Source: Chiloscyllium plagiosum (Eukaryota). Taken from it: DNA of 64,000 nucleotides. Below the pieces are notes generated by a model. That model saw only the letters and a list, made by a program, of their open reading frames with translations, did not search any database and was not told the origin of the DNA. The DNA lies in NCBI RefSeq assembly GCF_004010195.1, contig NC_057715.1, positions 93,608,456 through 93,672,455 of the forward strand, in the 5' to 3' direction. The translations under genes and the position numbers were made by a program. Of the stretch, positions 729 to 61,064 are shown piece by piece (the first letter of the stretch is position 1; each line of letters begins with the position of its first letter).

Positions 729-860
729 TATTCCTGATGAAGGGCTTTTGCCCGAAACGTCGATTTTCCTGCTCCTCAGATGCTGCCTGACCTGCTGTGC
801 TTTTCCAGCACCACTCTAATCTAGACCCTGATTTCCATAATCTGCAGTCCTTGTTTTTAC
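729..860 (+). mobile_element. Solo PLE pseudo-LTR insert (family A) with hammerhead core and 13-bp TSD
   Basis: ctatgtgataaca is duplicated at 716-728 and 861-873; the body matches the 3' end of the element at about 15755-15885. Confidence 0.8.
731..766 (+). ncRNA. Minimal type I hammerhead ribozyme motif (family A)
   Basis: CTGATGA 734-740, stem II GGGC-TTTT-GCCC, GAAA 754-757, palindromic ACGT stem III, GTC cleavage triplet. Confidence 0.7.
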
Positions 861-1289
861 CTATGTGATAACAAGGCCTGGTGTGTGGGGGTTGGGATCA
901 GGAGCATGTGAAAGCTCAAGACCTAAAGTTATTGAACTTGATACTGAGTCTGGAAGGCTATAGGGTTCCCAAGCGGAGAATGAGGTGCTATTCTTCCAGC
1001 TTGCGCTGAGTTTTGTTGCAAACGCGGTGCCCCACACCCCCAACTTACATTTGCAATGCAGTTTTAACTAACTACTGGCGTTGTCACCGTCACAGGGCAC
1101 CCGAACCCAGTCAGAGACTAGCATCTCGGAACAGGTTGATAAAAAAAACCTACAACATCAGGCTGCAAAGAATGTGGAAGAGCACGTCACACGTGGTTAA
1201 ACCTGAGGGAAAGGAATTAGAAAGTCACGTTCTAAACAGTTCACATACTTTGCCACTCTACAGACCAGTTCATATCCTGCACCTACCCA

Positions 1290-1600
1290 GCTTCAAACCC
1301 AGTTCACAACCAGCACTCATCCCCTGCGCCTGCGCAGCTTCAAACGGTCACGGACTCCTTCCCTCTCGGCCCGGCCACGCCCACACCGCACACAACGCGC
1401 GCGTGCTCACAACACCATTTCAAAAGTACGTGCCGGCCTGGTCTCGGAATGAGCGGATTGGTCGGTTTGCCCGCGGTCACGTGGTTTGGTCCCCCTCTCT
1501 CTTTGGGGTGGGAGGCAGTGCAGCCAAATTCAAACGGAGACAAAGCCGCGCGATTGGTCGGGCGGGGAGAGAGTTAACGGCCGAGGAGAAGCTGCTCTTT
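1290..1600. promoter_or_regulatory. CpG-rich CKAP2 promoter with G2/M-type motifs (possibly bidirectional)
   Basis: TTCAAA (reverse CHR TTTGAA) at 1292, 1339, 1419 and 1529; ATTGG (reverse CCAAT) at 1457 and 1553; NRF1-like TGCGCCTGCGCA 1325-1336; E-box CACGTG 1478; GC box about 1560; MYB-type TAACGG 1575-1580; dense CpG. Confidence 0.75.
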
Positions 1601-1617
1601 TACAAATACAGAGCAAC

Positions 1618-1675
1618 ATGTCAACTGTCTTCACTGCCACCGGGGCGAAGTCTCGGCAACCCCTGTCATATGCTG
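1618..1675 (+). CDS. CKAP2: CKAP2 coding exon 1 (MSTVFTATGAKSRQPLSYA)
   Basis: ATG in aacATGt just downstream of the promoter; donor G|gtactt; phase 1 joins exon 2 to give E-QRRQKL. Confidence 0.8.
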
Positions 1676-4600
1676 GTACTTTGCTGGTCTTGGGGAGAGC
1701 GCTTTTCACCGGGTCACTTATAAATTCTGCTCCGGGGTTAGGAATGATCGAGTGGGTTATTTTGTTTTAATTTCATATTAGTGTTGCTGGTTTTATTTTG
1801 GTGTTAATGTGTCGTTGATGCGGGTTTTATTTTGGTGTTAATGTCGCTGATGCTGTTGCCGCCGCTTCACTTTGCCAGCGATTACTCGAAATGAGTTTGC
1901 ACTGACAGTGTCCTGTCCTGTTTTTCCTCTTCGCGTCCCAGAGCAAAGGCGCCAGAAATTAGAAGAGTATCTGCAGAGAAAGAAGTCTGCTAACAACGTG
2001 GCGATCCGAGCCAGGAGCCGTTTGGAGAGCAGGTGACTGGGGTGATCTCTGTGTTTAATCAGTGAAGTCCTGCCAGCATCTTTGCACTTTGAAATCCCGC
2101 TTTCAGAGGTTTCCCTGTTTTGATATCCACTGCTATATCTAATTCTGTGCATTCCTAATGTCTCAATTTCAATGCCTCTACGTGTTTTTAAATTTTGGCA
2201 GTGACTGGAGCGTGGGAGATTTTGAAGCCACCGCGAGCAATGAATACATTCAAATGCAAAAAGACTCACCAGTAAATATCTGTTCGTTGATGTTTTAAAT
2301 CATGCATCGCCTCTTGCCCCGCCCTGTTAGCTGTCAGTTTTCGGTTCTATTTGAACCATCATAATGTGCCCTTTTTTTCTTCACAGATTCTCTTTCTAGC
2401 GGCGTTCTCTTTTAGGTTGAGGCTGGGTCGTTAAGTATGTTCACTGCTCAAAGATTTTTAATCAGTTAGGGAATCGAGGTTTAAGGGGAAAACGCAGGAA
2501 AGAAGAGCTTATGGTTATTAGATTAAGTCATGATCTAATTGAAGTAGCTGATCAATTTACTATTCAATGTTTACTATTCATCACTGGCTGTAGGTCATTC
2601 AACAAATTGTGTCTCTGGCTTTCTGCAGCGCAACCTCGTGAGACTTTTTTTAACTGCCGTCCTGTAAATCACTTCTCTTCAAATAATTATACAATTCCCT
2701 TTTGAAAATCATGGTTGATCTACCTCCACTATGCACTCTGGCATTATATTTCCAGATTATGGAATAGTCCTGTGTATAAAAAAAATCAATTTTTTTTTCA
2801 CTTACCTCTTTGGACATTTACCCTTTCTAACCTTTGTTGAAGTTTTGATGTTGGACTGGGGTGGACAAAGTTTAAAAATCGCACAACACCAGGTTATAAT
2901 CCAACTGGTTTATTTGAAAGTATTAACTTTCGAAGCACTGCTCCTTCATCAGGTGGTTATGGAGTATAAGATCATAAGACACTGAAGACACTGGTCCTCA
3001 CCCTGAACAACTTCTCTTTCCAATCCTCCCACTTCCTCCAAACCAAAGGAGTAGCCATGGGCACCCAGCTATGCCTGCCTCTTCATAGGATATGTAGAAC
3101 AGTCCATTTTCCGCAGCTACACTGGCATCACCCCGCACCTCTTCCTCTGCTACATCGATGACTGTATCGGCGCTGCCTCGTGCTCCCACGAGGAGGTTGA
3201 ACAGTTCATCCACTTTACCAACAACTTCCACCCCGACCTCAAGTTTACCTGGACTGTCTCAGACTCCTCCCTCCCTTTCCTAGACCTTTCCATTTCGGGC
3301 GACCGAATCAACATGGACATTTACTATAAACCGACCGACTCCCACAGCTACCTAGACTACACCTCCTCCCACCCTGTAAAAATGCCATCCCATATTCCCA
3401 ATTCCTTCGTCTCCGCCGCATCTGCTCCCAGGAGGACCAGTTCCAATACCGTACCACCCAGATGGCCTCCTTCTTCAAAGACCGAAATTTCCCCCAGACG
3501 TGGTCGACGATGCCCTCCACCGCATCTTCTCCACTTCCCGCTCCTCCAACCACCACCAGGACAGAACCCCACTGGGCCTCACCTACCACCTCACCAACCT
3601 CCATATACAGCGTATCATCCGCAGTCATTTCCACCACCTCCAAACGGACCCCACCACCAGGGATATATTTCCCTCCCCTCCCCTCCTCATCAGCGTTTCA
3701 AAAAGACCACTCCCTCTGTGACTCCCTCATCAGGTCCACACCCCCCACCAACCCAACCTCCACTCCCGGCACCTTCCCCTGCAACCGCAAGAAATGCAAA
3801 ACTTGCGCCCACACCTCCCCCCTTACTTCCCTCCAAGGCCCCAAGGGATACTTCCATATCCGCCACAAATTCACCTGCACCTCCACACACATCATCTATT
3901 GCATCCGCTGCACCCGATGTGGCCTCCTCTATATTGGGGAGACAGGCCGCCTACTTGCAGAACGTTTCAGAGAACACCTCTGGATTTCTCCAGTTTCCTC
4001 ATTTCCCCTCCCCCCACCTTGTCTCAGTCAAATCCCTCGAACTCAGCCCCGCCTTACTAACCTGCAATCTTCTTCCCGACCTCTCTGCCCCCACCCCCAC
4101 TCCGGCCTATCACCCTCACCTTGACCTCCTTCCACCTATCGCATTTCCAATGCCCCTCCCCCAAGTCCCTCCTCCCTACCTTTTATCTTGGTCTGCTGCA
4201 CACACTTTCCTCATTCCTGAAGCCCAAAACGTCGATTCTCCTGTTCCTTGGATGCTGCCTGACCTGCTGCACTTTTCCAGCAACACATTTTCAGCTCTGA
4301 TCTCCAGCATCTCACTTTCTCCACTGAGTTTATAGCAAAAGGGTTAGTGTCATGGAGCTGTAACGATATATTAAACAAGTTCAGATTAAGTCTTTCAACT
4401 TTTAGAATGGGATATGCTAATTCCAGTTCTTTAATATGTCAATTCCAGAATTCCTTTTTAGTTACATTCTCAAACTAGCTTTAGTTTTTTTAACAATAGG
4501 TGTCATCTCGGCTCAGACAATGCCTTAAAGGTGTTACATTAAAGTCTGTCTGTGTGCCAATATTGAGTGAGACTGTTTCTATTTTTAAAGTGGAATTCTG

Positions 4601-7600
4601 CAAATACAAATTCGTCCCATAAACTCGTGTGCATGTGCAGGAGAGACAGAGTGAGTGAATGCATGTGGGTTGAGTGCATTTGAAAGAGTGTGTGTAAGCT
4701 TGGTTAAGTAAGTGTATGAATGTGATGGGGTATAAGCCTGTGAGTATGGGGAGTACATGTGTGCATATGAGAGAGAGCTTGCGTATGAGATAGGGCCTGT
4801 GTGTGTGTATAGTGCAGTGGGGTCACCTATAGTGTGACATGAGTCCAAGGTCCTGGTTGAGGCCATCTCCTTGGATACCAAACTTAGCTATCAGCCTCTG
4901 CTCGGCCACTTTGCATTGTTGCTTGTACCGCAGTCTACCTTGGAGGATGGTCACCCAAAGGTCCGAGATTGAATGAATGTCCCGGACTGCTGAAGTGTTC
5001 CCAGACTGGGAGGGAACAGTCCTGGGATGTTAATGTTTAACATATCATTACAGCTCCATGACACTGTAACCCTTTTGCTATAAATTCTGTGTCTTATTAA
5101 ATTATACTCCATAATCACCTGACGAAGGAGCAGGACTATAACATGGTGTTGTGATTTTTAACTGTAGTGAAGACCATTATGCTAAAGGGAATAACTGCAT
5201 TTATTCTGTCCACACCTCTTATGATATTGAATACCTAGCAACTCTCTTCTTGACCTTCCCTAATAGAATAGCCCATGCTTCTGCAATTTCTCTTTGTAGG
5301 TGAAGTCCTCCCCCCCCAAACCATTCTGTTATAGCTTTTCCGTAGTAGCTAAAGCCATTTCCTTTTTCCCCCCCAAATGTACTTTGAATTGGTATCTACT
5401 CTAATATCCTTGCAATAAAGACTATTTGCTTTCCTAATTGCTTGTTGTGCCTGCACCCTACCTTTGCTCATTGTACAAGCATTTTAATTACATCCAAGTT
5501 GGTAGTATGATATGAGCAACATTTTGTTTGTTTTCTGATTCAGTTCTATTGCAGTGACTTCTCACATAACCTGGTGAAATTGCCTGGTACCATTACCATT
5601 ATCACTACCATGATGTAATGAGCATCGGTTTATAATTTGCAATTTTATAACCTTTTCCTTCACCTCATTTCAAGTTGTATGATGCTGTCTCGTCATTATG
5701 ATGTCATACCAGTGAAAATATCTTTTTTAAAAAGTTTACTGTTATAGATGTTGAACTATTTTTAATGCTAATAGTACAAATATTTGTTTTCTTTTGTAAG
5801 TTAGTTGATTTTGAAGAAGGCATGGAATTACTGTCTACAGTGTCTTTCTGATTTATACTGATCACCTTTCTTTTCATTTGAAGGGTATACTTGAGAGACA
5901 AGACCAACATTGAGAAACTTCAAGCTTCCACATGGCAGACAGAAGGAATGGTGGGTTCTTGAAGAAAAATGTAGATTTTCTCCTTTATCATGTGTTGCAT
6001 CCTTGGGTAGAAATTGCTCTGTTGGCTTTACATCTGAAAGCTTTACAGTTGTAATTTTACAGTGCAGGTTGTCTTGGATTGCGATCAGGTTCTGTTCTTG
6101 AGTCTGTTCGCAAGTTAATTTGTAGGCAAGTCAGAACACCATGCAGGACAACATAAAATAGCTATTCACAAGATAAAGAAAATGTTAATGTTTTAGATCT
6201 TCAAAATTTCACCATTCGTGAATGTCCAATTTATCAATGTGTTCATAAGTGTGAATCAGGGATCCCATGTACATTCCATTTGATTAAGGTAAAGTAGTAA
6301 ACTCCTTTTTTTTTCATTTGAATGACTCAGAATCTCTACAAATATTGAAGTGTCAGCCTCCAATTACATGCTGCAGAAAAAGCTGAATCGTGGAGTAGAA
6401 ATTTTTAGTGCACTGAATAAAACTGGCTACACCCAAATGTTTTTGCTGTTATCTCTGTATAGATCTGCATTGTGGGGAGCATGGTGGCTTGGTAGTGAGC
6501 ACTGCTGCCTCACAGTCCCAGGGATCTGGGTTTGATTCTACCATCTGGCACATGTCTGTGGAGTTTGCATGTTCTCCACATGTCTGTGTGGGTTTCTGCC
6601 AGGTGCTTCAGTTTCCTCCCACAGTCACAACTGATGTGCAGGTTAGGTGGATTGGCCATGCTAAATAACCAATAGTGTTCAGGGATGTGTTGGTTGGGTG
6701 TGCCATTGCGGAATAGGGGGATGGGTCTGGGTGGGATGCTTTTCAGAGGTTGGTGTGGACCTGTTGAGCCAAATGGCTTGTTTCCACACGAGGGATTCTA
6801 TTCTACTCTATGGATTTGAGATAAATAAAATATATGTAGAGTCAGAGATGTACAGCATGGAAACAGACCCTTCGGTCCAACCCGTCCATGCCGACCAGAT
6901 ATCCCAACCCAATCTAGTCCCACCTGCCAGCACCCGGCCCATATCCCTCCAAACCCTTCCTATTCATATACCCATCCAAATGCCTTTTAAATGTTGCAAT
7001 TGTACCAGCCTCCACCACATTCTCTGGCAGCTCATTTCATGCACGTACCACCCTCTGCATGAAAAAGTTGCCCCTTAGGTCTCTTGTTTGAACCCTATTC
7101 ATACATTTCTCAAGTTTTGACATTTTTAACCAATATTAGTTTAAAGTCTGTTAGAAATGTAAGTACATATTTTATGATTGATTTGCTACCTGGTTAGAAA
7201 AATACTAATTTCGTTTGTAGTTTTGGAACTTATCAATCTTGTGGGGCTTTGGTGACAATACATCTGAAGTATTGTATATAACTTTGGTTGCTTATCTTAA
7301 AATAAAATCTTTGCATGTAGTGGAATAAAGATTCTTCTTGCTGATTCTGTGGATAACTGCGTCGTCCCATGAGGAAAAATTGAGTAGATTCACATAGTGT
7401 TGTACCCAGTGAAGGCATTCATAACTTTAAACTTGGACTATATTTAACATATTGTTTTCTTGAAGTGTCTATTATTTTAAATAAAAGTTATTAACAACAA
7501 TCCAAAAAAGACTTCAAACCACTGGAAAATTCCTGGAGTGAATCTCCTTTCTGATGGGATAGGATTAGGCAGAACCATGTGGATTTTAAGCCTGCTACTT

Positions 7601-10600: not shown

Positions 10601-13600
10601 ACATTTCTAATTAAGTTCCTGAAGTTTAATTTGCAGGAGAAATTGAAATACAAGTTATGCTTTTTTTCACTCTGGCCCACCCCATACACAAAGTTGATGA
10701 CAGAAGTGAATTTTTCAGATCTGAATTCTTCTCTTTTTAGGGTTGTCCAAGTGAAGATTGTTTACAATCTCTTCAAACTTTGATTGAGAGTGTTCCAAAA
10801 GCCAAAAAATTTGCAAGATATTGGATCTGTCTTGCACAGCTTGAACAACGCAAAGGATCGGTGCATAATGTCATGGCTATTTATGAACAAGCCATCAAGA
10901 TAGGGGCACAGGTACTGCTAACTGCCTACTACTTTTATTTCTCTGCATCTCTTAAAATTAGAATTGTCCTGTCTCACTGGAGTAGTGCATTTGAAATCAA
11001 GCCTCGCTATTACTGGAGTTATCACAATAATTAAAGATTTTGTAAAAGTTGTTTTTAGACCCAGCTTAATAGAAAGCACAGATCAGATTTCTGTGCGTAA
11101 CAAGAATGTCAGGTTATTGCAAATAAATAAATTTCTGCTACAGGCAATTATGAACCATCAATGTATAACTCTATTTGTTAAAACTCTAAGTCCCTTAAGA
11201 TTCCCTCTACACACAATGTAGAATACAGTGCAATCTTCCCCATTCCTGATCCTTTTAGCTTTGACAGGCGCTCTCTCTCTCGCGCTCTCTCTCTCTCTCG
11301 CACTCTCCCCCTTCATTCCCATCATGGTTCATGAGCAAAAAGAGGTATCACATGCTATCAGTATAGGTTTTTCACTTATACATGTGACACTTCTTGGGTG
11401 GCGTATTAGGTTTATCCCTGAATTGAGACAGCACAGATGTACCAGCATTTGGATCTATCAGTGAGAAAAAAATTGTTTGTCCAAGATTTGTGCATTTGAT
11501 TTTCTACAGTATTTATCTAAGTTCTGCTGTGTTGTAATTCCTGCTCTGTATTCCTGTACCAAATTCTTCAGATGTGCAGCAGCAAAATTAAATTCTTTTT
11601 TTAAAAAATAAGGTGTAGCTAATCATGTGGTCCACTTAATAGAGTCATAGATATAAAGCATGGAAACAAACCCTTTGGTCTAATTCAACGAGATATCCTA
11701 AGTTTTCCAGCATTTGGCACATATCCCTCTAAACCTTTTCATATTCATATACCCATCCAGATGCCTTTTAAATCTTGTAATTGTAACAGCCTCCACCTCT
11801 GGCAGCTCCACACACACACCACCCTCTGCATGATAAAGTTGCCCCTTAGGTCCCTTTTTAAATCTTTTCCCTACCCTCTAGTTTTGGACTCCCCAACCCT
11901 GGTGCATGAAATAGGATCTTGACAAATTGCAGATGTCTCCAAAGAGCTATAGGATGTGTGAAAGATCTGAATCTCTGTCTCAGAGCATATCTAGATGTAG
12001 GACTGGCAGTTTCTTTAGAAATGGGTTAACTTTAAAAGTTAATGTACCACAGCAATCATTAATTATTAGCAGCTATTCAAGTGAGTTAGCTTGCATTTTG
12101 GGAGTGCAATTATAATTGTCTCCTTGATTTAGGTCCGAAAAGAATACTGTCTGGTTTCAACAATTTAGCATTTCATTGAATTAAAGCTGGAAATTGTACT
12201 CAGTGTGCTCAAATGGTGATGTCTGTTTGTCTAATTGAGTTGAAAATTTATTTCCACTCGACAACTTAATGCACTGGCAATTAAAATATTTTTGTTTGCT
12301 CAATTAAATTCAACTTTCCAAGTTTAAAAAAAACTTTTTTTTTCGACCATTAGAAAGCCATGACTTGCCTGTGTTATGAATGTAAAAAGCAGGGGCAAAG
12401 TATGAGAAACTGTGATATTCATATTTTTGCATAATGATCAATAACAAAAGTTTATCCAAGTAAAATTACTTTAATTTTAAAATAGTGAAATGTATGGTTC
12501 TAAATTGAATAGCGGTGATGTATTATGCAGTTAGCACAAATCTTTCCTCTCTGTCTCCTTTCCATCTCTTTCCCCTAGATTAACCCATATTTTCATCTAT
12601 TAAACCACAGATTTATATCTAAAATCTGGCCTAAGATGTTGGCATTCATAGCAATTGCTAACAAGATTGATTTGCCTGATTACTTTTTTTCCTTGAATGC
12701 CGAGGCAAGAAAGCTGGTTTAATTTATGATCTGAGTTGTGGGAAATATATTTATTAGCTAGTTATAAGTTTTGCAAACATTTTTCAAATGTGTTTTTGTA
12801 TTGATCTCAGATCTGCACCAGATTGACATAAATTGATGCAACATTTACACTATGGAGGCATGATTGGTAATTGTAATGAATAATTATGCATCTTTTTGCA
12901 GAAGTTAAGTTGTTTTTGTTTTACAGCCTGCAGATGAATTACGCATTACACTTGTAGATATTTTGAAAAACACCAAGACTCCTAAAAAACAACATGTTGG
13001 TGAGTTGATGCCTTCTCAGTGTATCCATTCTCTCATCGAGAAGGGTCACTCGACTGCTGAGCCAGTTGTGCACCTGCCCTGAATCATGTACAGGAGTGCT
13101 GTTCTGGTATTTGACTGAACTAATCTAGAGTCACAATCTAATGATCTGGGAATGCTAGTTTGAGTTCTACTGAGAGATGGTCAAATTTGAATTCCATAAA
13201 AGTCACATTCCACAAATTCCATAACTGTCACCAGTATCTGGTTCACTAATGCTTGTCAAGGAAGGGTATCTGCTGCATGTGTGATTTATAGACCATACTC
13301 ATATGACTCTCAACTACTGCTTAAAATGCTGTAGCAGTTCAAGGACAATTGAGAATGGGCAGTTTAACGCTCAGTGACTTCCGCCACCCCTACTGCCATG
13401 TCTGCCACCACTTCCGCCCCCACCAATGCCACTCGCCTGCATTCTGCTGACACGCCTTCCACTGTCACCATCCCTACCCCCCCAGAACTCTGAGGGGAAC
13501 ACCACCCCTGCTCATGACTCCACCACCACACCAACTCGAGTTACCAGCCCCGCCTCCACTCCCAGCTCCACACCCACACCAGATCCCAGCTCCCAGCCCT

Positions 13601-18612: not shown

Positions 18613-19668
18613 ACTAATATTTTCAAATGAATATGGATTATCTTTTTTAATTAAATGCACCTTATGTCCCAAAGCATCATTTAATCCAATGCAGTGCAGT
18701 CTGCTTTGCATAATTGTTTCCTTGCCATTTCTAAACAGTGATGTCCTGCATTTTATACTGCCTTTAACATAACAAAGCTATAGAAATATTTAGTGCTTAA
18801 TCTTGTTTTTAAAGTGCTTTGTCATGCTGTAGTATGACAAAGGCCTATGAAATTGATGGATGAAAATGAGAATGATTTTAAAACTCCAAGTTTGGTTTCT
18901 CCCAAGTCCATTAGAGCTGAATACTATGGCTATTCTTGTCTTCTAGTTGAAGAAACTAACTTTTTGCTCTAGTATTTTTAAGAAAAGATTTCCTTTCTGG
19001 ATGAAGCGAAGTGCTGTAGGCACTGAATGTGAAATAAAAACAAATGCAGCTTGTTGAGCATCATCTGTGCACAGAAAATAGCTAACATTTCAGGCCAGTG
19101 CGTTTTTATCAGAACTGGGAATAGTTAGAGATGTAATCAGTTATTTGAGCGGTGGATAAATATGCCATATTGTTTTCTTGCTTTACTTAAGTTTTCATTT
19201 GAATTAGCAGCATAACTGCTCCAGGCCCATCTTGTTTTGTTTCTTGCATCCATTCCACTCCATCTGGACCTGGAGGAATAACCTTCTTGGTCCTTCATTC
19301 TCTCCTGTCGTCCATTCTTTTACAGCATTTTTTTAAAAAAAATTCTTGTCTCATCCCTTGCTCAAAAGCTGCTACATTGCTAACATTTCCCAGTTCTGAT
19401 GAAAAGTTACTGCCCTGAAATGTTTACTCATTTGCTTCTCTACATGGATGTTGTCTAACCGCTGAGCTTTCTCCCACCATTTTTTGTTTTTTCTTTTAAT
19501 GGTTGACAATATACAAGAGTGACCTATTTTTCTCACCCCAACAAGGTTTCAGCGAATTTAAGTGTTTGATTCTTTAGTTATTAATGTTTGATATGCACAG
19601 TTGTAATCTTGTTTTACAAAAAAAATTCCAATATGTTTGGAAGACAGTGGCAGACACAATGTGTGTAT

Positions 19669-21964: not shown

Positions 21965-22660
21965 AGACTATATTTTTAGCAATAGAGGAATTGTGTTGGG
22001 CAGGTATGAGTATCCATGAGAGAGTATCTGTATTTGTGTGAGTATAAAAGAGTATAGGTCTGTGAGATGGGTATGAGTGTGTATGTGTGACCCTCTCATA
22101 CACACACACACCCACAGATGCACTTGACACTCACTTATACACCTACACACTCACAGACACTCATATCCACCCCCACCCACCCACACGTAAGTTTGTGGGG
22201 TGAATTTTTAGTTGCAGAATTACTTTTTATTTTTGCTCAAAAACTGCATGAATCCATGTAAGGTTCTGTTAATTTCCTTATTAGGAATAGAAGCAGTCTG
22301 AACATTGGGGCACATAATGTGCCTCACATTACCTAAGTTGACATGACATTTATCGTTAAAGTTCACTTGAGAATGCAACTTTAAAAAAAAGTTCTGGATT
22401 TACATATGAAAGATATGAAACCAATAGAGTCATTCTAAAAGATGAGAGACTTAAACAATCCAGATCTCTCTCAATATATCATTTCAGTTGCATCACTGTA
22501 AACTTTTGCTATAAATTCTGTGTCTTAAAATCGTGTACTCCACAATCACCTGACGAAGGCGCAGCGCCCCAAAGCTCGTGCTTCCAAATAAACCTGTTGG
22601 ACAGTAACCTGGTGTTGTGTGATTTTTAACTTTGTCCAACACCAGCACGTCCAAATCACA
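21965..22660 (+). mobile_element. PLE family B 3' UTR/pseudo-LTR remnant with a short inverted 5' part
   Basis: Same terminus as at 50901-51182 (ctgacgaagg...aacctgttgg...gtgatttttaac); degenerate hammerhead at 22550. Confidence 0.65.
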
Positions 22661-23221: not shown

Positions 23222-23358
23222 CGTTAAAAAAATCACACAACACCAGGATATATAAGGGTGACAACCACCGAAAGCTAGTGCTTCCAATTAAACCTGTTGG
23301 CGTTGTGTGATTTTTAAAAACATTTGTACGCCCCAGTCCAACACCGGCACCTCCAAAT
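23222..23358. mobile_element. Short fold-back PLE mini-element (family B)
   Basis: gttaaaaaaatcacacaacacc ... gttgtgtgatttttaa plus the family tail ccagtccaacaccggcacctcc. Confidence 0.6.
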
Positions 23359-23589
23359 CTTCATTTAATGTGGCAAGCTTATTTCATGCCCCCCTCATAA
23401 ACGCAGCAACTTTGCGCCCTTCAATAAAGTTTGTGACTGAAACCAAAAGCTGAACAACAATGTTGGGATTTTTAAAGTGTAACAGTGCCTCGTTTGAGCA
23501 TAAATAACGGAGAATTGAACATCGCTTCATTGCTGTTTTACCACATTAATCTGGGTCACTGTCTCATTACAAAGAGCTTTCTATAAACC

Positions 23590-47900: not shown

Positions 47901-50900
47901 TGTCTGAAGATATTAGTTCAGGTGACCAAAAGCTTGGTTGTAAAGAGAGGTTTTAAATACTGTTTTAAAGGAGGATAGTGAATTATAGTGAGGTAAAGAG
48001 ATGTAAGGACAGTATTCCAGAGCTCAGGACTAGGCAGCCAAGGGTGTGGCCACCAGTGGAAGGAGCACATAAATTCAGGGTGCTCAGGGCTCAAGTTAGA
48101 GGAGATCAGAGTTGTGCAGCTGCGTTGGAGGGACTGAAATCAAGAGAGAAAATTCTAAAATCAAGGCAATGCCTGACTAGTACCAATAAAGGTCAGCAAG
48201 CTTTGGGGTGACTGGGGAGCAGGACTTGGTCTGAATTGAAATGTGTAGAGTGGAGTTTCAGATAATGGAATGCCCTGCCAGTAGCAGTGGTGGACTCTCC
48301 CTCTTTATGGGCATTTAAGCGGGCATTGGATAGGTATATGGAGGATAGTGGGTTAGTATAGGTTAGGTGGGCTTGGATCGGCACAACATCGAGGGCCAAA
48401 GGGCCTGTACCGCGCTGTATTCTTCTATGTTCTATGTTCTAAATGTGGAATCCTAGCCAGGATAAAACTGAAGCTAGAAGTCACAAATGAAATATTTTCT
48501 ACAGCAGCTGTTAAGTAACGTTCGAAGATGGAAATAGGCGGTCTTTATGATGGTGAGAATGTGAAAGCAAGTGTGAGAACTAAGCATATCCAAAACTTCT
48601 GTTTTATAAAACAATTAAGGAGTAACCAATGTAAAGGTGTGAAAATTGCAGGTTGATTAAACTATAGAGTAGATCGGCGATCAGAGACAAATGATGATAG
48701 AAGAAAGCAAGGAAGAGGCTGATAGAGAAAAACACAAATAGAAAAATATAAAAACATTGAAAGGATCTCACATTTTCACTATACATTAATGACTTGAATG
48801 AAAACTTAGAGTTATATCCAAGTTTGTGGAGGCACAGTAAGTTGTCTGATTATAGATTAGATTAGATTACTTACAGTGTAGAAACAGGCCCTTCAGCCCA
48901 ACAAGTCCACACCGACCCACAACCCACCCAGATCCCTACATTTACCCCTTCACCTAACACTACGGGCAATTTAGCATGGCCAGGTCACCTGACCTGCACA
49001 TTTCTGGACTGAGAGGAAACCGGAGCACCCGAAGGAAACCCACTAGGAGAATGTGCAAACTCCACACAGTCAGTTGCCTGAGGTGGGAATTGAACCCGGG
49101 TCTCTGGCGCTGTGAGGCAGCAGTGCTAACCACTGGGAATTTTCAAAGGGAAACCTGGATTAAGTGAGTGGTTGAATGAAGAAATGTGAAGTCATATACA
49201 CTTTGGCTCTGATCTTAGCTTTGGGAGGCTGAGTTTTAAAGGAGGAAAGGTCAATTAAGGTGCTCGTTGACATAGATCACTCAAAGTTAGGTGTAGGCAA
49301 AAAAGGAATCAAAGTATAATTTTAATAGATGTTACCCTTTATCTAAAGATGAGGGGAGGGGAGATTGAAGTTCAAGATTCAGAAAGTGTTCTTGCAGCGA
49401 TGCAAAGTATTGGTCAGATCATACCTGGAGTGCTACAGTCAGCACTGAACCAATTAAATTTTTTGGACTACAACCTGGTGTTGTGTGATTTTTAACTTTG
49501 TACACCCCAGTCCAACACCGGCATCTCCGAATCATATTTTAATTTTGAAAAGGATACACTGCACTTAATTATGCCATGAAGCTTAAAGGATTAATTTCTG
49601 AGGGCATGTTGCATAAAATTGGTTTTTAATTCCTTGAGTTTGAAAGCTTGAAAGGTGATAAATTTATTCTGGATACACAAGAACTGTTTCACCTGGCAGT
49701 TGAGACCAGTGTGAGATACAATCTTAAAATTAAAAGTAGACTGAACAGGGGTGATGCCAAGAAGTACAACTTCACATGAATTATTGTGGAAATCAAAAAT
49801 TAACTCTCCTGAAATACTGACAATTGTGATTTTCAAGACCACAATTGATTAACTTTGTTAAATGAGAGAATCAAGGGATATGGTGCACATAAATGGAGTT
49901 CAGGTACAGATCAGCTGTAATCTAATTGGCTAAACAGTCTTGAGGGCTGAATGGTCTACTGTTATGTTTTGCATTTCTTGAACAAGAAACGGGAGATAAG
50001 AAGTTGAAGAAATATGGACAAAGAAAGGAATAAAACTGGAACTTGGGACTCAAAAGAGTATTGAATGACTGGAAAGATGCATTTACCATTCTGTTTTCAT
50101 CTGTGACCAATATGTGATAAACTAGTTGTTAAAAATTAATTTACTACTTTGATTGGGTGTTCTTCAAGTGGCAGTTTGTAAATTTTCAATGTTGACAGTC
50201 TGCATCTGTTTATGATTCTAACATTACTTGATTGTATAGTTTTACATTACATCAGAAATACTGCAGGGTTCCAAAGATCACTATTATGTAATGTTAGTTT
50301 TGTTTAAATCATTCTGTCAAGTTAAATCATTTCCTCTATAGCAAAGATTAATGTGGACTGATTAAATTTATTCTTTAATGATGGATCTAATCTACATTAA
50401 CAAGAGGCAATTACTTTATTCCACCATTGTAGCAGTTCAACATTTTTTGAATGTGTAACATTCTGTATAACATTCTAACTACAAACTTTTAGACATTTCC
50501 CAGTCGATCAGGCATAGTAGCAACATGCATATGGAATTTTGTGTGTGACAGGAATTAGAGTAGTAGTTAATGAATGTTTTTCAGGCTGGAGGAAGGTTTG
50601 TAGTTCTCTGCAATCAGTATTGAGACCCTCGCTTTTTCTGATATTTCCTATATTAGTGACTTACAATGTGGTGCACTGTGCAGGGGATAATTTCAATGTT
50701 TGTAGATGATACAAAACTTGGAAGCAAAGAACAATAAGAAGAGGATAGTTTAGAACTTCAAAAGTACATTGATAAGTTATGATTCGGAGATGCCGGTGTT
50801 GGACTGGGGTGTACAAAGTTAAAAATCACACAACACCAGGTTATAGTCCAACAAATTTAATTGGAAGCACACTAGATTTCGGAGTGATGCTCCTTCATCA

Positions 50901-53102
50901 TTGTTAACAGCTAACCCGAGAATGCAACTTAAAAAAAAAGGGTTCGTGATTTACACATGAAAGGAGTGAAACTATCACTGTATTCTAACAGATGAAAGGC
51001 TTAACAGACAATCAATTCTTCAATGTATAATTTCAGTTACATCACGCTGCAAATTTTTGCTATAAATTCTGTGTTACGATCGAGCCCTCCACAATCACCT
51101 GATGAAGGAGCCTCGCTCCGAAAGCTAGTGTGCTTCCAATTAAACTTGTTGGACTATAACCTAGTGTTGTGTGATTTTTAACATTGATAAGTTAGTGGAC
51201 TTAGTGTATAGGTGGCAGAAAGTTTCAATGCTGAAAAATGAATAATCTTGCTAGGAAGATTATGGAAAGATAACTTGCTGGAGTATTGTGAATATTCTGG
51301 TCATGTTTCAGGGAGGATATGAAGGCATTGGAGAAATTAGGAAAAAATAATGAGAATGGTTTCATGGGTGAAGAACTTCAGTTATGAAGGTGAACTGGAC
51401 AAGTTCAAGCTGTTTTCCTTGGAGAAGACTGAGAGGAAATCTGATTGGGGTGTCAAAAGCATGAGGGGTCTGGAAAAAGCAGATAGGGAGAATTTGTTCT
51501 CACTTGTGAAAGGATCAAATTCAGATTATAGCTAGAGGTGAAAAATGGAAGGAGATAAATATTTGATAACAGTGATCATGCATAATAAATGTATAATAAG
51601 AAGCTGTGGAATGTGGCTTAACCTAAATAGAGTATATAATGGCACACTTATTGCTGAGGAAAAATGAAAGGAAATTCCTGATCACAGTGGGATAATAGAA
51701 ATGTAGGTGATGACTTTGGCAGTAGCCAATGGAAGAGAAAACTGTGAAGAGAGTAAAATGCCTATTTTTTGGCAATCACTCATTTTGTAGTAAGACTAAA
51801 GTTGAATTTCACCCCATGGTGATAGAAGGTGGCTTTCAACAGAAGCCAGAAATTGCTAGGTTGCAAGTTAGTTGTGTAAATTTCTACTGACTAATTAGGT
51901 CCATATTGTTTTCTCAATTACATTATTTTGGACTGTAAGGATGACTATCTAACGTATATTTTATATTTACAATAATTTGGAAATTAATCTTTTGCTATTA
52001 ACATTTGAAACAATATAATTTTTATTTCTTTAGCATCAGGAACCTATCTCATTGGCCCACTATCAGCTGCCCTTGGGAAGACTGATAATGTTGATGGTGA
52101 AATGGAAACAATCGAGTTGGATCCGGAAAGATTGGAACCCAGATCTGATGATGAAGACACGTAAGTTTGAAAGCTGTCAGAGTTACTTGGATGTGCAGTC
52201 TAGAAAACAAGTGCAAACGCAAAGTATTTCGAGGAAAGTAATCCTCAAAAAATATATCGATCACATTGGTCTCTCCTTTATCACGATTACTGCAATATTT
52301 GTTCACTTCCAAAAACCCATCATCATATATGAGACCGCAACTCCAATCTAAGCCTCTGAAAAAAATCAAAATGGGCAGAACTCCTGTTGATTTGGCTTGA
52401 ATATACAATTCAGCCCGATCAATTAATTCTAGTACACAGATTGTGGATGACAGGAGAATTCTAGATGTCAAGGCCCTTAAACCCATTTTGATTAATCTAT
52501 TGAGAAAGACTCCAGTCCTTGAATTGCAGCATCCAATATTCCTATTCATTCTGTAATTTCTAAGCTGCCTCCCATGATTCCTGGACTATTGAAGGTTGAG
52601 ATCTCTCATAAATTTGACCAATTATATTGATGGTATTCATACAAATTTAGAAACAATCCCATTAAATTATGAGCCACACTATTTAATATTGTTGTGATTC
52701 CACCAATATGAATATTGCTTCATATTTTTCAGCTAGTTTCATACCTATTCCCCAGTAGGCCTAATGCTTCACGTTGGAGCAGATGCATTGTTGCAGCTTA
52801 ATTGCCTAAACTTGCATACTTTAGAAGCCTAGAGCACAATTAATTTTCTGACAACTTGTTCAGCCATTGGTATGTAGGAATATCTGTAGTACAAAGTATC
52901 CCAGCTTTCAGTTCAAAGTCTATTGCTATAGTCTCATCCAGATCAGGCCAGGGCAGAATAGACATTAAGGTGCCACATGTTTGTCCTTTGTCGCAGTTGT
53001 AATGATGCTGAATTTTTTTTTCACTATTACAGAGACTTTGAAGAAACAAGTGAGCCAGATTGGGTGGACGAATTAAAGAATTTGCTGGAGAATAATCTTT
53101 AA
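26861..53102 (+). CDS. NEK3: Serine/threonine kinase NEK3, 15 coding exons: 26861-26977, 27890-27983, 33441-33538, 34304-34387, 36261-36328, 36528-36614, 37714-37768, 39008-39208, 41588-41663, 41776-41834, 44755-44866, 45397-45555, 45647-45781, 52034-52160, 53033-53102 (1542 nt, 513 aa; an in-frame ATG at 26858 could add one residue)
   Basis: Spliced translation [21 protein letters not shown]...HRDIKSKNIFL...KLGDFGSA...[15 protein letters not shown]...[14 protein letters not shown], with a NEK3-type tail (AFKTYTI...LDPERLEP...DEDTDFEE...PDWVDELK). All phases are consistent. Confidence 0.94.
27890..27983 (+). CDS. NEK3: NEK3 coding exon 2 ([19 protein letters not shown])
   Basis: tttag acceptor; G|gtgaga donor. 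Confidence 0.93.
28530..29860 (-). mobile_element. CR1-clade LINE fragment (RT to 3' end)
   Basis: [12 protein letters not shown]...[29 protein letters not shown]. Confidence 0.85.
30828..32195. mobile_element. PLE family B composite: - strand terminus/3' UTR (30828-31440) plus + strand GIY-YIG remnant and 3' UTR (31445-32195)
   Basis: QPCHGNHC linker and [11 protein letters not shown]-like endonuclease remnant; the two halves are inverted relative to each other. Confidence 0.7.
33441..33538 (+). CDS. NEK3: NEK3 coding exon 3 ([14 protein letters not shown])
   Basis: ttgcag acceptor; ACG|gtatac donor. Confidence 0.93.
34304..34387 (+). CDS. NEK3: NEK3 coding exon 4 (HRDIKSK), GC donor
   Basis: taacag acceptor; AAG|gcaagt donor. 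Confidence 0.92.
36261..36328 (+). CDS. NEK3: NEK3 coding exon 5 (NIFL...DFG), GC donor
   Basis: ttgcag acceptor; CAG|gcaagt donor. Confidence 0.92.
36528..36614 (+). CDS. NEK3: NEK3 coding exon 6 (activation loop, GTPYYVSPE)
   Basis: ttacag acceptor; AG|gtacaa donor. Confidence 0.93.
37714..37768 (+). CDS. NEK3: NEK3 coding exon 7 ([19 protein letters not shown])
   Basis: ttttag acceptor; CCT|gtaagt donor. Confidence 0.93.
37859..38410 (+). mobile_element. HE1-like SINE split by a PLE fold-back insert
   Basis: Head and body at 37859-38067; remainder at 38276-38410. Confidence 0.7.
38068..38273. mobile_element. Fold-back PLE mini-element (family A) inside an HE1-like SINE
   Basis: 83-bp inverted arms (38068-38150 and 38159-38241) with one mismatch; hammerhead core CTGAAGA..GAAACGTC on the - strand. 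Confidence 0.85.
39008..39208 (+). CDS. NEK3: NEK3 coding exon 8 (end of kinase domain)
   Basis: tatcag acceptor; GAG|gtgaga donor; [14 protein letters not shown]...NPKDRPS. Confidence 0.93.
40031..40242. mobile_element. Fold-back PLE mini-element (family C, older)
   Basis: Inverted ttgctggagaaattcagcag...gagttaac / gttaactc...ctgctgagtttctcca. Confidence 0.6.
41588..41663 (+). CDS. NEK3: NEK3 coding exon 9
   Basis: ttccag acceptor; G|gtatta donor; phase-compatible lysine-rich linker. Confidence 0.75.
41776..41834 (+). CDS. NEK3: NEK3 coding exon 10
   Basis: tttcag acceptor; ATG|gtttgt donor; needed to restore the phase between exons 9 and 11. Confidence 0.6.
42132..42756 (+). mobile_element. 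Possible solo LTR
   Basis: Block bounded by TGTT...AACA with an internal AATAAA (about 42611); no clear TSD. Confidence 0.35.
44755..44866 (+). CDS. NEK3: NEK3 coding exon 11 ([14 protein letters not shown]...)
   Basis: tctaag acceptor; G|gtaaag donor. Confidence 0.75.
45397..45555 (+). CDS. NEK3: NEK3 coding exon 12 ([19 protein letters not shown])
   Basis: taccag acceptor; G|gtaact donor. Confidence 0.85.
45647..45781 (+). CDS. NEK3: NEK3 coding exon 13 ([13 protein letters not shown]...AFKTYTI)
   Basis: cattag acceptor; G|gtaaga donor. Confidence 0.88.
47243..47392. mobile_element. Short fold-back PLE mini-element (family B)
   Basis: Inverted gttaaaaatcacacaac...gtccaacag / ctgttggactataac...gatttttaac; flanked by tatctttt(t)ccta. 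Confidence 0.7.
47524..47846 (+). mobile_element. tRNA-derived SINE (HE1-like V-SINE), full length
   Basis: A/B-box head ggtggctcagtggttagcactgctgcctcacagcgccagggacccaggttcaattcc; central tgtggagttt..cgttctcccc domain; CR1-like tail gggcctgtttccacactgta-(aatct)n. Confidence 0.85.
48265..48440 (+). mobile_element. CR1-clade LINE 3' end
   Basis: gggccaaagggcctgtaccgcgctgta followed by a (ttctatg)n tail. Confidence 0.65.
48855..49135 (-). mobile_element. HE1-like SINE (reverse); a tail-only fragment also lies at about 20557-20650
   Basis: Reverse complement of the 47524 family, including the (agatt)n tail. Confidence 0.8.
50780..51180. mobile_element. Fold-back PLE mini-element (family B) with 14-bp TSD
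   Basis: acattgataagtta at 50766-50779 and 51181-51194; inverted arms at about 50818-50900 and 51100-51182. Confidence 0.85.
51096..51130 (+). ncRNA. Minimal hammerhead motif (family B), sense in NEK3 intron 13
   Basis: cac-CTGATGA(51099-51105)-A-GGAGC-CTC-GCTCC-GAAA-GCTA-gtg: perfect stem II, AGCT palindrome for stem III, CAC:GTG stem I. Confidence 0.7.
52034..52160 (+). CDS. NEK3: NEK3 coding exon 14 ([15 protein letters not shown])
   Basis: ctttag acceptor; AC|gtaagt donor. Confidence 0.9.
53033..53102 (+). CDS. NEK3: NEK3 coding exon 15 ([22 protein letters not shown])
   Basis: ttacag acceptor; TAA stop at 53100-53102. Confidence 0.9.
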
Positions 53103-53146
53103 AGTGCTGTTCAAACTGAATGAATAATGAAAATGCTAAAAAACAA

Positions 53147-53521: not shown

Positions 53522-53745
53522 GAGAAAGGGAGGACTACAGATGCTGGAGATCAGAGCTGAAAATGTGTTGCTGGAAAAGCGCAGCAGGTCAGGCAGCATC
53601 CAAGGAGTAGGAGCACCCCCACCTCATTTATCTCTCCATCCTTCTGCTTGTATTCCTGAAGAAGGGCTCATGCCCGAAACGTCGATTCTCCTGCTCCTTG
53701 GATGCTGCCTGACCTGCTGCGCTTTTCCAGCAACACATTTTCAGC
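53522..53745. mobile_element. Fold-back PLE mini-element (family A) with 17-bp TSD
   Basis: gctggctaagtcaatag at 53505-53521 and 53746-53762; 58-bp inverted arms at 53556-53613 and 53688-53745. Confidence 0.88.
53652..53687 (+). ncRNA. Minimal hammerhead motif (family A) downstream of NEK3
   Basis: CTGAAGA 53656-53662, GGGC-TCAT-GCCC, GAAACGTC. Confidence 0.68.
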
Positions 53746-53852
53746 GCTGGCTAAGTCAATAGCCTGTAATGGCTTCCTGCTACAGCATTGTTATCTCGAG
53801 TGTCCTCAATGTTTTACACTGGGGACCCCTTTTTTCTTACCAACACGTATTT

Positions 53853-54446
53853 CTGGATTAGAGTGGTGCTGGAAAAGCACAACAGTTCAGGCAGCATCCA
53901 AGGAGCAGGAAAATTTACGTTTCGGGCAAAAGCCCTTCATCAGGAATACAGGCAGAGTGCCTGAAGGGTGGAGAGATAAATGAGGTGTGGATGGGGAGAA
54001 AGTAGCATAGAGTACAACAGGTGAATGGGGGTGGGGATGAAGGTGATAGGTCAAAGAGGAGGGTGGAGTGAATAGGTGGAAAAGAAGATAGGCAGGTAGG
54101 ACAAGTCATAGAGACAGTACTGAGCTGGAAGTTTGGAACTGGAGTGAGGTGGGGGAAGGGGAAATGAGGAAAGTGGTGACGTCCACGTTGATGCCCTGGG
54201 GTTGAAGTGTTCCGAAGCGGAAGATGAGGCGTTCTTCCTCCAGGCGTCAGGTGGTGAGGGAGCGGTGGTGAAGGAGGCCCAGGACCTCCATGTCCTCGGC
54301 TGAGTGGGAGGGGGAGGTGAAATGTTGGGCTACAGGGCAGTGTGGTTGATTAGTGCGGGTATCCCAGAAATGTTCCCTAAAGCACTCTGCTAGGAGGTGT
54401 CCAGTCTCCCCAATGTAGAGGAGACTGCATCGGGAGCAACGGATAC
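53853..54446 (-). mobile_element. PLE family A 3' fragment (GIY-YIG plus pseudo-LTR with hammerhead core at about 53916-53943)
   Basis: ORF 54247..54495 gives IRCSRCSLLYIGETG...FREH; reverse-strand CTGATGA-A-GGGC-TTTT-GCCC-GAAACGTA. Confidence 0.85.
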
Positions 54447-55169
54447 CAACACGTAGCCTCTTGGCAACTTCTGAAAATGCTACAATAACTTTCATAGGAA
54501 CACCTTCTACACCAATTTCTACCTCATGACAACTCTGTTTTGTTGTCTCTGAACAGTCAAACCTCTTGTCTAACTTAATGAGCTTCTGACTATGCTACAC
54601 ACACACCCTAGACTGCATTTATCTACATTTAGTATGTAGTCCAAGTCTGGCCTGCCTCCACTCATTTGTCATTGTAACCTTCATTGCTGCCTTTCTTTGG
54701 TTTTTCATTTGTGAGATGTCAGTGTCACTGGAAAGTTGTTATTGCCCATTCTTGATTGCCCTTGAGGTGATGAACCATCTCCAAGGAACATTGGGCACAA
54801 AAGAGAAAACCCTGTTTCTTTCTTAAATGTTTTATTGGTTGATTTCAACCAGGCTTCTAGCAAACAATGCAGATTTAATGCACCCAGTGCAATGTCGGTG
54901 CACTCTCAGTACTGAACATGATGGTGAGTTTTGAATAAGTACTGACAGGGAAAGTGGTTGGTTAGGGGGTAGGAGTGGTGGTGCAGGAGGGTTGAGAAAC
55001 CAAATTTTGTGAATGTTTGTAAGGGAGCTGAGATCAAATGATAATAGGGATAATGTTGCAAAGCAAAATGAGATAATAATGGAAGAAGAAAATGAAACGT
55101 GGGTCTGGAGCAGATGTCACTGGGAATAGCAGAATCATCATCATCAGCTCTTGTCCCAAAACAAAAGGC

Positions 55170-58445: not shown

Positions 58446-59299
58446 TTCCTTCATCTAGATTGTTAATGAAGAGGGGACAGACATGACAACCTCAAACTGT
58501 TGAACTCAATGTTTATTTTGGATGACAGGGTGGTTGTGGAAAGGTTGTTTCCGGGGTTCACTGTTGAAAATTAAACCCATTTAAGACAAAGATGAGGAGA
58601 CTTTTTATCTAGCAAAGGGTTGAGAACCATTCTTTAAAAAATGGTGGAAGCAGCGTCTTGAATATTTTTAGCTGGAAGGTAAATGGATTTCTGATAAGCA
58701 AGGGGCGAAAGGTGATCAGGGATAGATGTAGTCAGATCAGCCATGACCTTATTGAATGGTGGAGCAGGCTCAAGGGGCTGAGAGATATACTCCCACTCCT
58801 CATTTATCTACTCGTAAGGTTGTAAAGTGCATAATCTAAAGATAATGTGCTTTTGCTCCATTGAGCTTCATTGGAACAATACATGGAAGCTGAGAATGGG
58901 GATGCTGAAAATGGGATTGGCAGTTTGTGGGCTGAAGGGAGAGATTCCTGAAAACACAAATGTACATTTGGTTCTCTTGCCATCTCAGTGGTGAGGGGAC
59001 TGCAATGTAAGCAGGGAATCTGGTGTACAGAGCAGAGAGGAAGGACACACTCAGTGGTTATTATACACAGAAGGAGTGTTTGATTTTTTTTACTGTCTGT
59101 CAAGGGACAGTCTGGACTCTCTCGACTGGCCAATCAGGGTGACTGAGTGGTTGCATGACAGCAGGGCTTAGGTTGCACTGCATGTTGGATACTGTAGTCC
59201 TGCTGCGTTGAGCAGTGGGCCTTGGCTTGGTCGCATTCTGCAGGTGAGTCCAGGGGCCCAGGCTCACACAGAGAGAATCCTATACAATATTCACCACCA

Positions 59300-59580
59300 A
59301 AACAAAAACAATCGAACCTTTGCCTTGCCTGACGTTTGTAAGTATTTTGAAAACTTTTCTTTTGAAAACACCGTAAAAGTCTTAGGTTGGTCTCAGCTGT
59401 TGTCGGTGAAGTTTGTTTCTCCCCGTCGTCATGGCAACGGTCTGGGAGAGGCGAATGTTTGGTGCGAGTTGTTATTTGTCCCTGAAAAGCAGTTGATTTG
59501 AAAAGAAAGGTTGGAATTGTCACAATGAGGTAGCAAACAGTAGCAAACGTACACGCTAGAGGAATTAATTCTATCGCTTT
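59300..59580 (+). promoter_or_regulatory. Candidate ciliary-type promoter with RFX X-box (next gene, possibly NEK5)
   Basis: GTCGTCATGGCAAC at 59425-59438 resembles the RFX X-box; forkhead-like GCAAACA at about 59533; local CpG enrichment in non-repeat DNA. Confidence 0.4.
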
Positions 59581-60584
59581 CTTTTAAGTACAAAGCCTCT
59601 CAGTTTGTTGGTGGAGTTGCAGAGATCCTGCAGATCTGTTCTGGGAAGAACTACATATTGTAAATATTAAGACAGGATCGAGAAGAAGGTTCGTCTTCAA
59701 GTTCATCTTGATTTTGAACTCCCATTTCAAAGATAATTGTTGGGTTGAAGAGCGACAATCCTTGAGTGTGAATTGTTATGGGTTAAATTGATTTTTTTAC
59801 ACACTTCTGTCCCTCTCTCCCCGACTCCCACCACCCCCCAAACATGGTTAATCATTTATTTTTCACTGGATGTGAGCGTTATTGTCAACATTTATTATTC
59901 ATTCCCAATTACCCATGTGAAATTGGTGGTGGACCATCTGTATGATTTGCCACAATGCTGTTAAAGGAGTGAGTCCCAGGATTTTGTCCCAACCGCAGTG
60001 AGGGAACCCATTTATTTCCAAGCCAGGATGATATTTGACTTGGAGGAGAATTGGCAAGTGGTGAGGTTCCCATGCATTTGTTGCCCTTGTCCTTCTTAAT
60101 ACTAGAGGTTACAAGTTTGTTTGGATCAATGTGGGTCAGCGCAAGAGGAAGTGAGTAGTGAAGGTGTTGAATGGAGTGCTGATCAAATCTACTTTGTTTT
60201 GTTCATTCACAGCAAGAGAGCATCACTGGCTCGGTCAGCATATATTGCACATCCCTAATTGCCCAGAGGGCAGTTAAGAGCCAACCACATTGCTGTGGGC
60301 CTTGAGTCACGTAGGTCAGACCAGTCAAGGATGGCAGTTTCCTTCCCTAAAGGGCATTAGTGAACCAGTTGGCTTTTTCTGAAAATTGACAATGGTTTTA
60401 TGTTCATTATTGGACACTTAACCTCAGATTTTGTAGAATTCAAATTCCACCATCTGCTATGGCAGGATTCAAACCTGGGTGCCCAGAACATTGCCTGGGA
60501 TTCTGGATTAACAGTCCAGTGATAATACCCCTAGGTTGTCTCCTCCCTGACTGCTTTGTCTTGGTTCGTGCCAAATCCTCTTAA

Positions 60585-61064
60585 GTTAAAAATCACACAA
60601 CACCAGGTTATAGTCCCACAGATTTATTTGGAAGCACTAGCTTTCGAAGCGCTGTTCCTTCATCAGGTAGCTGTGCAGTAGGATCATATGACACAGAATT
60701 TATAGGAAAAGATCACAGTGTCATGCAACCAAAACAATACAGTATATTGAACAAACGTAGATTGCTGTTAAGTTTTTATCTTTCAGAATGGTTTGCAGGT
60801 CTCGTTTGCAGAAACCAAAATCTGCAACCCATTCTAAAAGGTGAAAGACTTAACAGCAATCTAGTTTGTTCAATATATCGTTTCTGTTGCATGATACTGA
60901 TCTTTTCCTATAAATTCTGTGTCTTATGATCCTGCTGTACATCTACCTGATGAAGGAGCAGCACTCCAAAAGCTAGCACTTCCAAATAAACCTGTTGGAC
61001 TATAACCTGGTGTTGTGTAATTTTTAACTTTGTCTGCCCCACTCCAACACCAGCACCTCCACAT
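60585..61064. mobile_element. Large fold-back PLE mini-element (family B) with 13-bp TSD
   Basis: caaatcctcttaa at 60572-60584 and 61065-61077; imperfect inverted arms of roughly 210 bp, each with a hammerhead-derived motif. Confidence 0.85.

Follow-up and report, generated by a model that had tools for sequence, protein, structure and literature searches.

Minimal hammerhead ribozyme motifs in the terminal repeats of shark Penelope-like elements and a probable origin of their short stubs

The stretch of DNA analysed here, referred to as the window, comprises 64,000 nucleotides of the genome of the shark Chiloscyllium plagiosum (assembly GCF_004010195.1, contig NC_057715.1, positions 93,608,456 to 93,672,455 of the forward strand). 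It carries a CKAP2-like gene at 8514-20200 (+) and copies of the terminal repeats, or pseudo-long terminal repeats (pseudo-LTRs), of Penelope-like retroelements, with intact or decayed hammerhead ribozyme motifs. Minimal hammerheads in the pseudo-LTRs of metazoan Penelope-like elements were published in 2014 by Cervera and de la Pena (PMC4209133), and the motifs described below are genuine sequences of this kind, placed in the same known arrangement at the termini of Penelope-type elements. Most copies are stubs of 95-130 bases. We consider it probable that the motifs are minimal type I hammerheads of Penelope-like terminal repeats and that most stubs arose when the enzyme of the element copied the short 5' leader, still uncut, of an RNA whose start probably lies a few bases ahead of the ribozyme. 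The kind of motif being already known, its interest for specialists lies in the count and in the stubs as a fossil record of the copied RNA.

The motif was defined as CTGANGA, an extra A, a stem II of 4-5 pairs, GAAA, two nucleotides, T and H, and a strict test further required at least 4 pairs in stem II, a palindromic stem III and a residue other than G at H17. Six sites of the window pass this test (734, 15759, 51099 and 53656 on the plus strand, 53943 and 38159 on the minus strand), and 100 dinucleotide shuffles of the window gave a mean of 0.0 strict matches with a maximum of 0. Among the six, stem I is retained only at 734 and 53656 (2 contiguous pairs each) and at 51099 (3 pairs); it is broken at 15759 by G1.1>A, the 53943 motif carries C17>A and G1.1>A, and the 38159 motif is cut off at its stem I strand. 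A previous sequence-only reading of the window had named 17 sites and sorted them into three families, A, B and C. All 17 are present at the positions and on the strands it gave, but its listing was incomplete: it missed a fourth family, D, at 637 (-), whose core TTGACAA represents a U3-A8 swap of C3-G8, and anchor motifs bring the total to 26 modules, 15 of the A/C/D type and 11 of family B. The copies are as follows, inverted and head-to-head units being given without strand.

281..379 (-), family C decayed copy; upstream flank retained, TATAAA at -33
511..638 (-), family D stub; U3-A8 core 637-631, G12-A13 decayed; 16-nt target-site duplication
730..861 (+), solo stub of family A with intact motif 734-761; 13-nt target-site duplication
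2835..2986 (-), family B pseudo-LTR; motif 2952-2924 decayed
3055..4320 (+), family A element nested in a family B element; reverse transcriptase (RT) fragment (YIDD), C-X4-C-XX-C linker, GIY-YIG fragment and pseudo-LTR; motif at 4217 deleted
4322..5036 (-), family B endonuclease remnant (5036-4826) and 3' flank toward the 2952 motif
5034..5163 (+), inverted family B copy; 5119 motif internally deleted
13451..15886 (+), family A element, sense in a CKAP2 intron; RT start (LPKIHK), N run, endonuclease end, 3' flank and pseudo-LTR; motif 15759-15786, stem I broken
19079..19117 (-), decayed C-type motif in the transcribed CKAP2 3' region
19391..19429 (+), decayed C-type motif in the transcribed CKAP2 3' region
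22471..22660 (+), family B copy; motif at 22550 decayed
23228..23359, family B inverted pair, truncated
26486..26667, decayed family C head-to-head pair with a 7-nt duplication
27552..27645 (-), decayed copy of family C
30827..31033 (-), family B copy with the core CTGACAA at 30947; a B-type endonuclease remnant lies on the other strand at 31632-31928
38068..38265, family A head-to-head pair; core 38159-38132 (-) intact, stem I strand missing
40031..40240, decayed family C head-to-head pair
44581..44678 (-), decayed copy of family C
47244..47397, family B head-to-head pair without core; 12-nt duplication
49450..49541 (+), family B tail without motif
50773..51186, family B head-to-head unit; motif 51099-51127 (+) intact, partner 50900 (-) decayed; 14-nt duplication
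53522..53745, family A head-to-head unit; motif 53656-53683 (+) intact; 17-nt duplication
53851..54594 (-), family A endonuclease end (YIGETG), 3' flank and pseudo-LTR; motif 53943-53916, stem I broken
60549..61069, family B head-to-head unit; motifs 60666 (-) and 60947 (+) decayed

At 2835-5163, a family A element (2990-4320, with a 6-nt shared flank word) interrupts a family B element, the breakpoint lying between the B endonuclease remnant and the B terminal repeat. The window contains no tandem arrays.

Stem II reads GGGC/GCCC in family A, GGAGC/GCTCC in B and GGGTC/GACYC in C and D. The sequence-only reading held that stem II differs completely between families while keeping its pairing; the pairing is indeed kept, but the first pairs stay G-C or G-U and only the outer pairs change. 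Helix III is absent, and the 15.1-16.1 palindrome is ACGT in A, C and D and AGCT in B, the two 4-nt palindromes that it described as stem III. The extra base between A9 and G10.1 is an A in 117/118 family A copies, and the G10.1-C11.1 pair is G-C in all eight aligned A, C and D copies. Helix I counts 4 pairs in subfamily A2, C and D, 3 pairs in B, and 2 pairs plus 1 beyond a U-U mismatch in A1 and A3. Cleavage had been predicted after GTC or CTA, to which family C is an exception, as it would instead cut after GTT. All the sequence features of the minimal Penelope hammerhead are thus present, and self-cleavage is putative. A covariance model built from A, C and D gives 14 matches in the window, adding the motif at 19079-19117 (-) and scoring that at 19391-19429 (+); it recovers no family B copy there, so B lacks independent structural recovery. 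Against Rfam, the window gave 16 matches at E<=10, none of them to a hammerhead family.

Covariation was assessed on eight natural copies of A, C and D, family B, which the aligner shifted by one column, being left out and its stems read by eye. In this alignment 95.8% of the cells are paired, and 5/9 pairs are changed on both sides: stem I accounts for three, stem II for one, and the fifth is the 3-8 pair (C3-G8 to U3-A8). None of 500 shuffles reached the covariation score, which is to be taken as support and not as a probability, and partners slid along the alignment pair at 16-47%. By eye, family B adds CAC/GTG in stem I, GGAGC/GCTCC in stem II and the palindrome AGCT. The covariation of stems across families on which the sequence-only reading had staked its interpretation was therefore found among A, C and D, and shows, at the level of sequence, a motif that has presumably been under selection in the source elements. 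The decay of inserted copies, for its part, resembles that of neutral CpG DNA. Among 118 family A copies selected because they span the motif (>=72% identity), G12 is changed to A in 23, a proportion similar to that at other, neighbouring CpG sites (p 0.42); the core is kept in 69/118, and the core, stem II, the palindrome and 2 stem I pairs together in 32/118.

The identity of the motifs as minimal type I hammerheads in Penelope-like pseudo-LTRs, as first proposed, is supported by neighbouring reading frames in two of the families. Family A motifs lie downstream of RT and GIY-YIG frames (3055-4121, 13451-15556 and 54594-54247), and family B motifs, in the window and in sampled DNA, follow a distinct GIY-YIG frame with ~35-40% identity to that of A. 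The link between terminal repeat and Penelope-like frame is thus shown for A and B, and not for C and D. Family A frames contain the linker CNRKKCKTC (C-X4-C-XX-C), of which family B shows the CxxC half. The linker of family A agrees with the CX2-5CxxC motif, which Neptune and Nematis share (PMC8557442). Downstream of the motif, families A, C and D have in common GATGCTG...CAGCATC at +45 to +125 from the core, whose two halves can pair into a long stem around an inner hairpin; this stem is a candidate recognition structure for the protein of the element.

The sequence-only reading suggested a genome-wide count of hammerheads. Exact patterns occur 87,506 times for A, 17,416 for B, 447 for C and 1,031 for D in the 3.556-Gb assembly, a sum of 106,400 (30 per Mb) that is a lower bound, with narrow patterns for C and D; reversed patterns gave 0 for each family. 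The strict descriptor, applied to a sample of 24 50-kb blocks (1.132 Mb excluding N), found 55 matches, or 49 per Mb, with 0-8 per block. Among these 55 motifs, 47 have at least 2 contiguous stem I pairs and 25 at least 3. In 400 kb, 24 strict motifs were found vs 0-1 in 20 shuffles. Extrapolation from the block sample implies a genome total of roughly 160,000-170,000 motifs, ~75,000 of them with three stem I pairs. Modules reach ~230 per Mb when decayed copies are counted, and the motif density of the window is ~2x the sample average. Published counts are ~9,000 hammerheads in Xenopus tropicalis and ~4,000 in coelacanth (PMC4209133), obtained with a different descriptor from that behind our 106,400 exact motifs, while PMC7229834 gives >6,000 for a coral and 126,247 for axolotl. 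The axolotl figure corresponds to ~4.5 per Mb (126,247 in 28.2 Gb), versus 30-49 per Mb in the shark. The shark density is therefore several times the published densities that we found, a ranking that is provisional because descriptors differ. We found no paper counting these motifs in sharks in a literature search to which repeat databases (Repbase, Dfam), supplements and Lunse et al. 2016 were external, and among the papers listed by a loose search, none pairs the hammerhead ribozyme with a shark genus.

The stubs are informative by their ends. For family A, 5' ends were read in 160 of 195 anchors (>=85% identity, no N upstream), with inverted pairs counted twice. Counting positions from the core, 29 copies extend into the 3' flank of the element, 11 end at -29..-8, 51 at -7..-1 (with a peak at -4), 29 at 0..7, 18 at 8..19, 4 at 20..27, 1 at 28..31 and 17 later, this last bin holding some C copies. 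A template made by ribozyme cleavage would be expected to start at 28..31, where 1/160 ends fall, vs 51/160 at -7..-1. The family B set (66/78, including window copies and 10 pattern-picked loci) gives 25 ends at -20 or farther upstream, 16 at -13..-1 and 0 at +29..+31, and many B copies begin at -8; by inspection, the boundary lies near -8 in B and at -4 in C and D. Cleavage-made templates were rejected on these figures (1/160 in A and 0/66 in B). A splice site at the boundary was also rejected, as the flanks are unrelated host DNA with abutting duplications and no constant exon. Downstream, the 3' ends of 90 loci cut at -4 (for each of three patterns, the first 30 that occur on contig 1) lie at about +86..98 and at +125 (40/90), two ends ~35 bases apart. 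After removal of one duplicate and three misclassed loci, 18/35 host-flanked stubs have a target-site duplication of >=7 nt, vs 13/1190 swapped flanks, and in the window duplications of 12-17 bases border the units at 734, 637, 47244, 50773 and 53522.

An AT-rich box stands upstream in 12/12 chosen copies that retain their flank. It reads TATAAA or ATAAA in B, C and D and TTATCT in A, at -33 to -40, which places it 29-33 bases above the stub boundary. The base preceding this boundary is often a G (4,544 G, 2,156 A and 816 T in family A; 21 G, 3 A and 0 T in a hand count of family B), an excess that fits copying of a cap and is only suggestive of it. Finally, the subfamilies found among stubs match those of the copies that extend into the 3' flank of the element.

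Because family A stubs start at the 5' edge of the ribozyme and not at the cut site, the copied RNA was likely uncut and began there. Our working model is that the AT-rich box is a TATA-type promoter, located in the terminal repeat, which would have transcription begin at the ribozyme's front edge, and that this RNA would be capped at the boundary. The protein of the element would then begin reverse transcription ~90 or 125 bases downstream, at two internal starts like those of the Anolis element discussed below, and copying up to the RNA 5' end would yield a stub made almost entirely of ribozyme. The ribozyme itself may cut slowly, only as a dimer or with the element protein. Once inserted, a stub would have neither promoter nor same-strand partner, and neutral decay would follow. 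That the genome holds >100,000 of the motifs is likely due to an element RNA that begins right with the ribozyme and whose short leader, uncut, is turned back into DNA. The "very large genomic ribozyme load" of the sequence-only reading is supported as a count but not as an active load: stubs are mostly solitary or head-to-head, and since they lose the promoter and the same-strand partner and decay neutrally, their huge number would be a by-product of element geometry.

Several observations weigh against this account. The family A box, TTATCT, is a non-canonical TATA, and the 12 copies showing the box were hand-picked. Of 10 host-flanked cases with a G, 7 have it inside the duplication, and many others could be templated by the inverted partner. 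No RNA 5' end was observed, and read starts do not pile up at -4 in the single informative RNA run, which is poly(A)-based and a weak test. The covariation rows are few and related, with the structure drawn from them. As regards the elements, the GIY-YIG match of family A to Pfam (E 3.7e-4, 21.2 bits) is below the curated cut-off of 22.6, and the 39 copies retrieved with the C/D motif as anchor, some A copies among them, showed no frame within 2 kb upstream. All six candidate full-length regions, with a frame between two direct repeats, are broken by N runs, such that no intact two-repeat element could be read.

Stubs might instead be ordinary 5'-truncated copies, the RT having stalled or switched template at the folded ribozyme or at a bound protein, with no RNA starting there. 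These elements are in general strongly truncated at their 5' ends (PMC8557442), 47/160 family A ends fall within the core and stem II (0..19), which also counts against our model, and the 29/160 copies that extend upstream establish that long templates exist. Yet stalling is expected at the 3' side of a structure, whereas the peak is at the 5' edge; only 11/160 ends lie at -29..-8, several of which resemble chance extension; and the boundary moves with the upstream box, from near -8 in B to -4 in A. We regard this explanation as unlikely, though it is the strongest of the competitors.

A second possibility is that many inserted motifs are live, being transcribed in host introns and untranslated regions and cutting host RNA as dimers or with the element protein. 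The 32/118 family A copies in which the whole fold survives would allow it, and the 1,588 reads of the family in the RNA run, from single cells, come from both strands. In addition, RNA-type contigs on CKAP2, which cover 8514-10907 and resume from 17623 onward, flank the motif at 15759, which is therefore intronic and sense. However, this intronic copy has a broken stem I, and an RNA-type contig reads straight through the 19396 copy, one of the two decayed C-type motifs of the transcribed 3' region; nor do read ends pile up at the cut site in the RNA run. Among 50 intact motifs sampled, only 5 have a same-strand partner of the same family within 5 kb, whereas 25 abut an antisense twin. An active dimer fold is possible but predicted to lie 5-15 kcal/mol above the best fold, and published single minimal motifs did not cleave in vitro, dimers being weak (PMC4209133). 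Inserted stubs are accordingly poor candidates for cutting and are probably mostly inert, and widespread activity appears very unlikely. We give equally little credence to a bolder proposal, according to which this would be the densest animal hammerhead population so far, with tens of thousands of intact stubs in host transcripts acting as latent cut sites that fire upon expression of the Penelope protein, and with the cap-proximal ribozyme of the element RNA serving as a protein-triggered decapping switch. The tens of thousands of intronic copies would allow a strand-bias test of activity in vivo.

Least credible of all, a self-propagating non-autonomous family, SINE-like (short interspersed element-like) or retrozyme-like and with its own promoter, would account for the uniform 95-130-base length, the duplications and the lack of a reading frame beside C or D copies, but stubs start downstream of the AT-rich box and have thus lost it, they share their subfamilies with copies that reach into the element 3' flank, and tandem arrays are absent from the window.

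Returning to our model of a copied uncut leader, its components have counterparts in known systems. The shark motifs resemble the minimal hammerheads of PMC4209133 in the core, the extra base between 9 and 10.1, the G10.1-C11.1 pair, the palindromic 15.2-16.2 and the short helix I, as well as in the occurrence of several families per genome, of mostly single truncated copies and of opposite-strand pairs; a U3-A8 variant like that of family D is reported there in Schistosoma. The 5'-end pile-up, a box at -30 and sharks receive no mention in the available text of that paper. In the Anolis element PAc (Poseidon; Frangieh et al. 2024), two internal RT starts define a tail of 30-40 bases, and hammerhead cleavage needs protein and is dispensable for insertion (PMC11167929). 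The hammerhead near the RNA 5' region, the two internal starts with their tail and the uncut RNA template would be common to PAc and the shark elements. The two differ in that PAc belongs to the Penelope/Poseidon clade whereas the family A linker is of the Neptune/Nematis type, and in that the activity of PAc was measured whereas the shark motifs are known here from sequence.

Insertions of endonuclease-positive Penelope-like elements (PMC3846280, PMC8557442, PMC2377424) likewise show an inverted 5'-truncated partner, a tail, duplications and solo repeats, and the shark copies display the inverted 5' partner, the 30-40-base tail and the target-site duplication. In the shark, unlike in those elements as described, stubs are the dominant product, at the module density given above. 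A promoter within the repeat is known from the rotifer Pen2a (putative TATA and initiator), whereas that of Drosophila Penelope is TATA-less, internal and associated with an intron, and so differs from the shark box (same sources). We found no paper on a promoter box or transcription start at truncated Penelope-like hammerhead copies. The function of Penelope hammerheads has been called unclear (PMC8557442), and the stubs bear on their purpose in that they point, in four families, to an uncut template likely starting at the ribozyme, ~30 bases below a TATA-like box.

Non-LTR retrozymes, present in one cartilaginous fish according to a 2026 survey (bioRxiv 10.64898/2026.07.22.740005), are similar in their very many type I hammerheads per vertebrate genome, as in axolotl, and in being derived from or related to Penelope repeats (PMC7229834, same survey). 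They are built, however, of tandem units of 150-450 bases that carry canonical motifs, and they have circular RNA, whereas shark stubs are dispersed or head-to-head and minimal. Retrozyme identity was rejected, as no tandem 150-450-base arrays occur in the window and same-strand neighbours are as rare as stated above (5/50).

As for the surroundings of the copies, the exon at 8545-9492 is 100% identical to the CKAP2-like protein of Chiloscyllium plagiosum (NCBI), in agreement with the shark lineage assumed by the sequence-only reading. A frame at 45300-45650 (+) may correspond to the end of a NEK3-type kinase, which would put the later motifs near or in a second gene. Fragments of the RT of a long interspersed element (LINE) lie at 56078-58265 (-) (RVT_1, E 4.9e-9), with related ends at 6837-7085 and 11640-11800; we take them to be of the CR1/L2 type. 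A tRNA-like SINE family with a TAGAT/TAATC-type tail, which we assume to be the shark HE1 SINE, occurs at 6473, 25289, 37851, 47523 and 62074 (+) and at 49046 (-). Outside the window, a family A stub at sampled locus L003 (minus strand, near 1881) has a retrovirus-like pol fragment of 339 residues beside it, and at locus L246, upstream of 1501, a family D stub apparently sits inside the RT region of another Penelope-like element.

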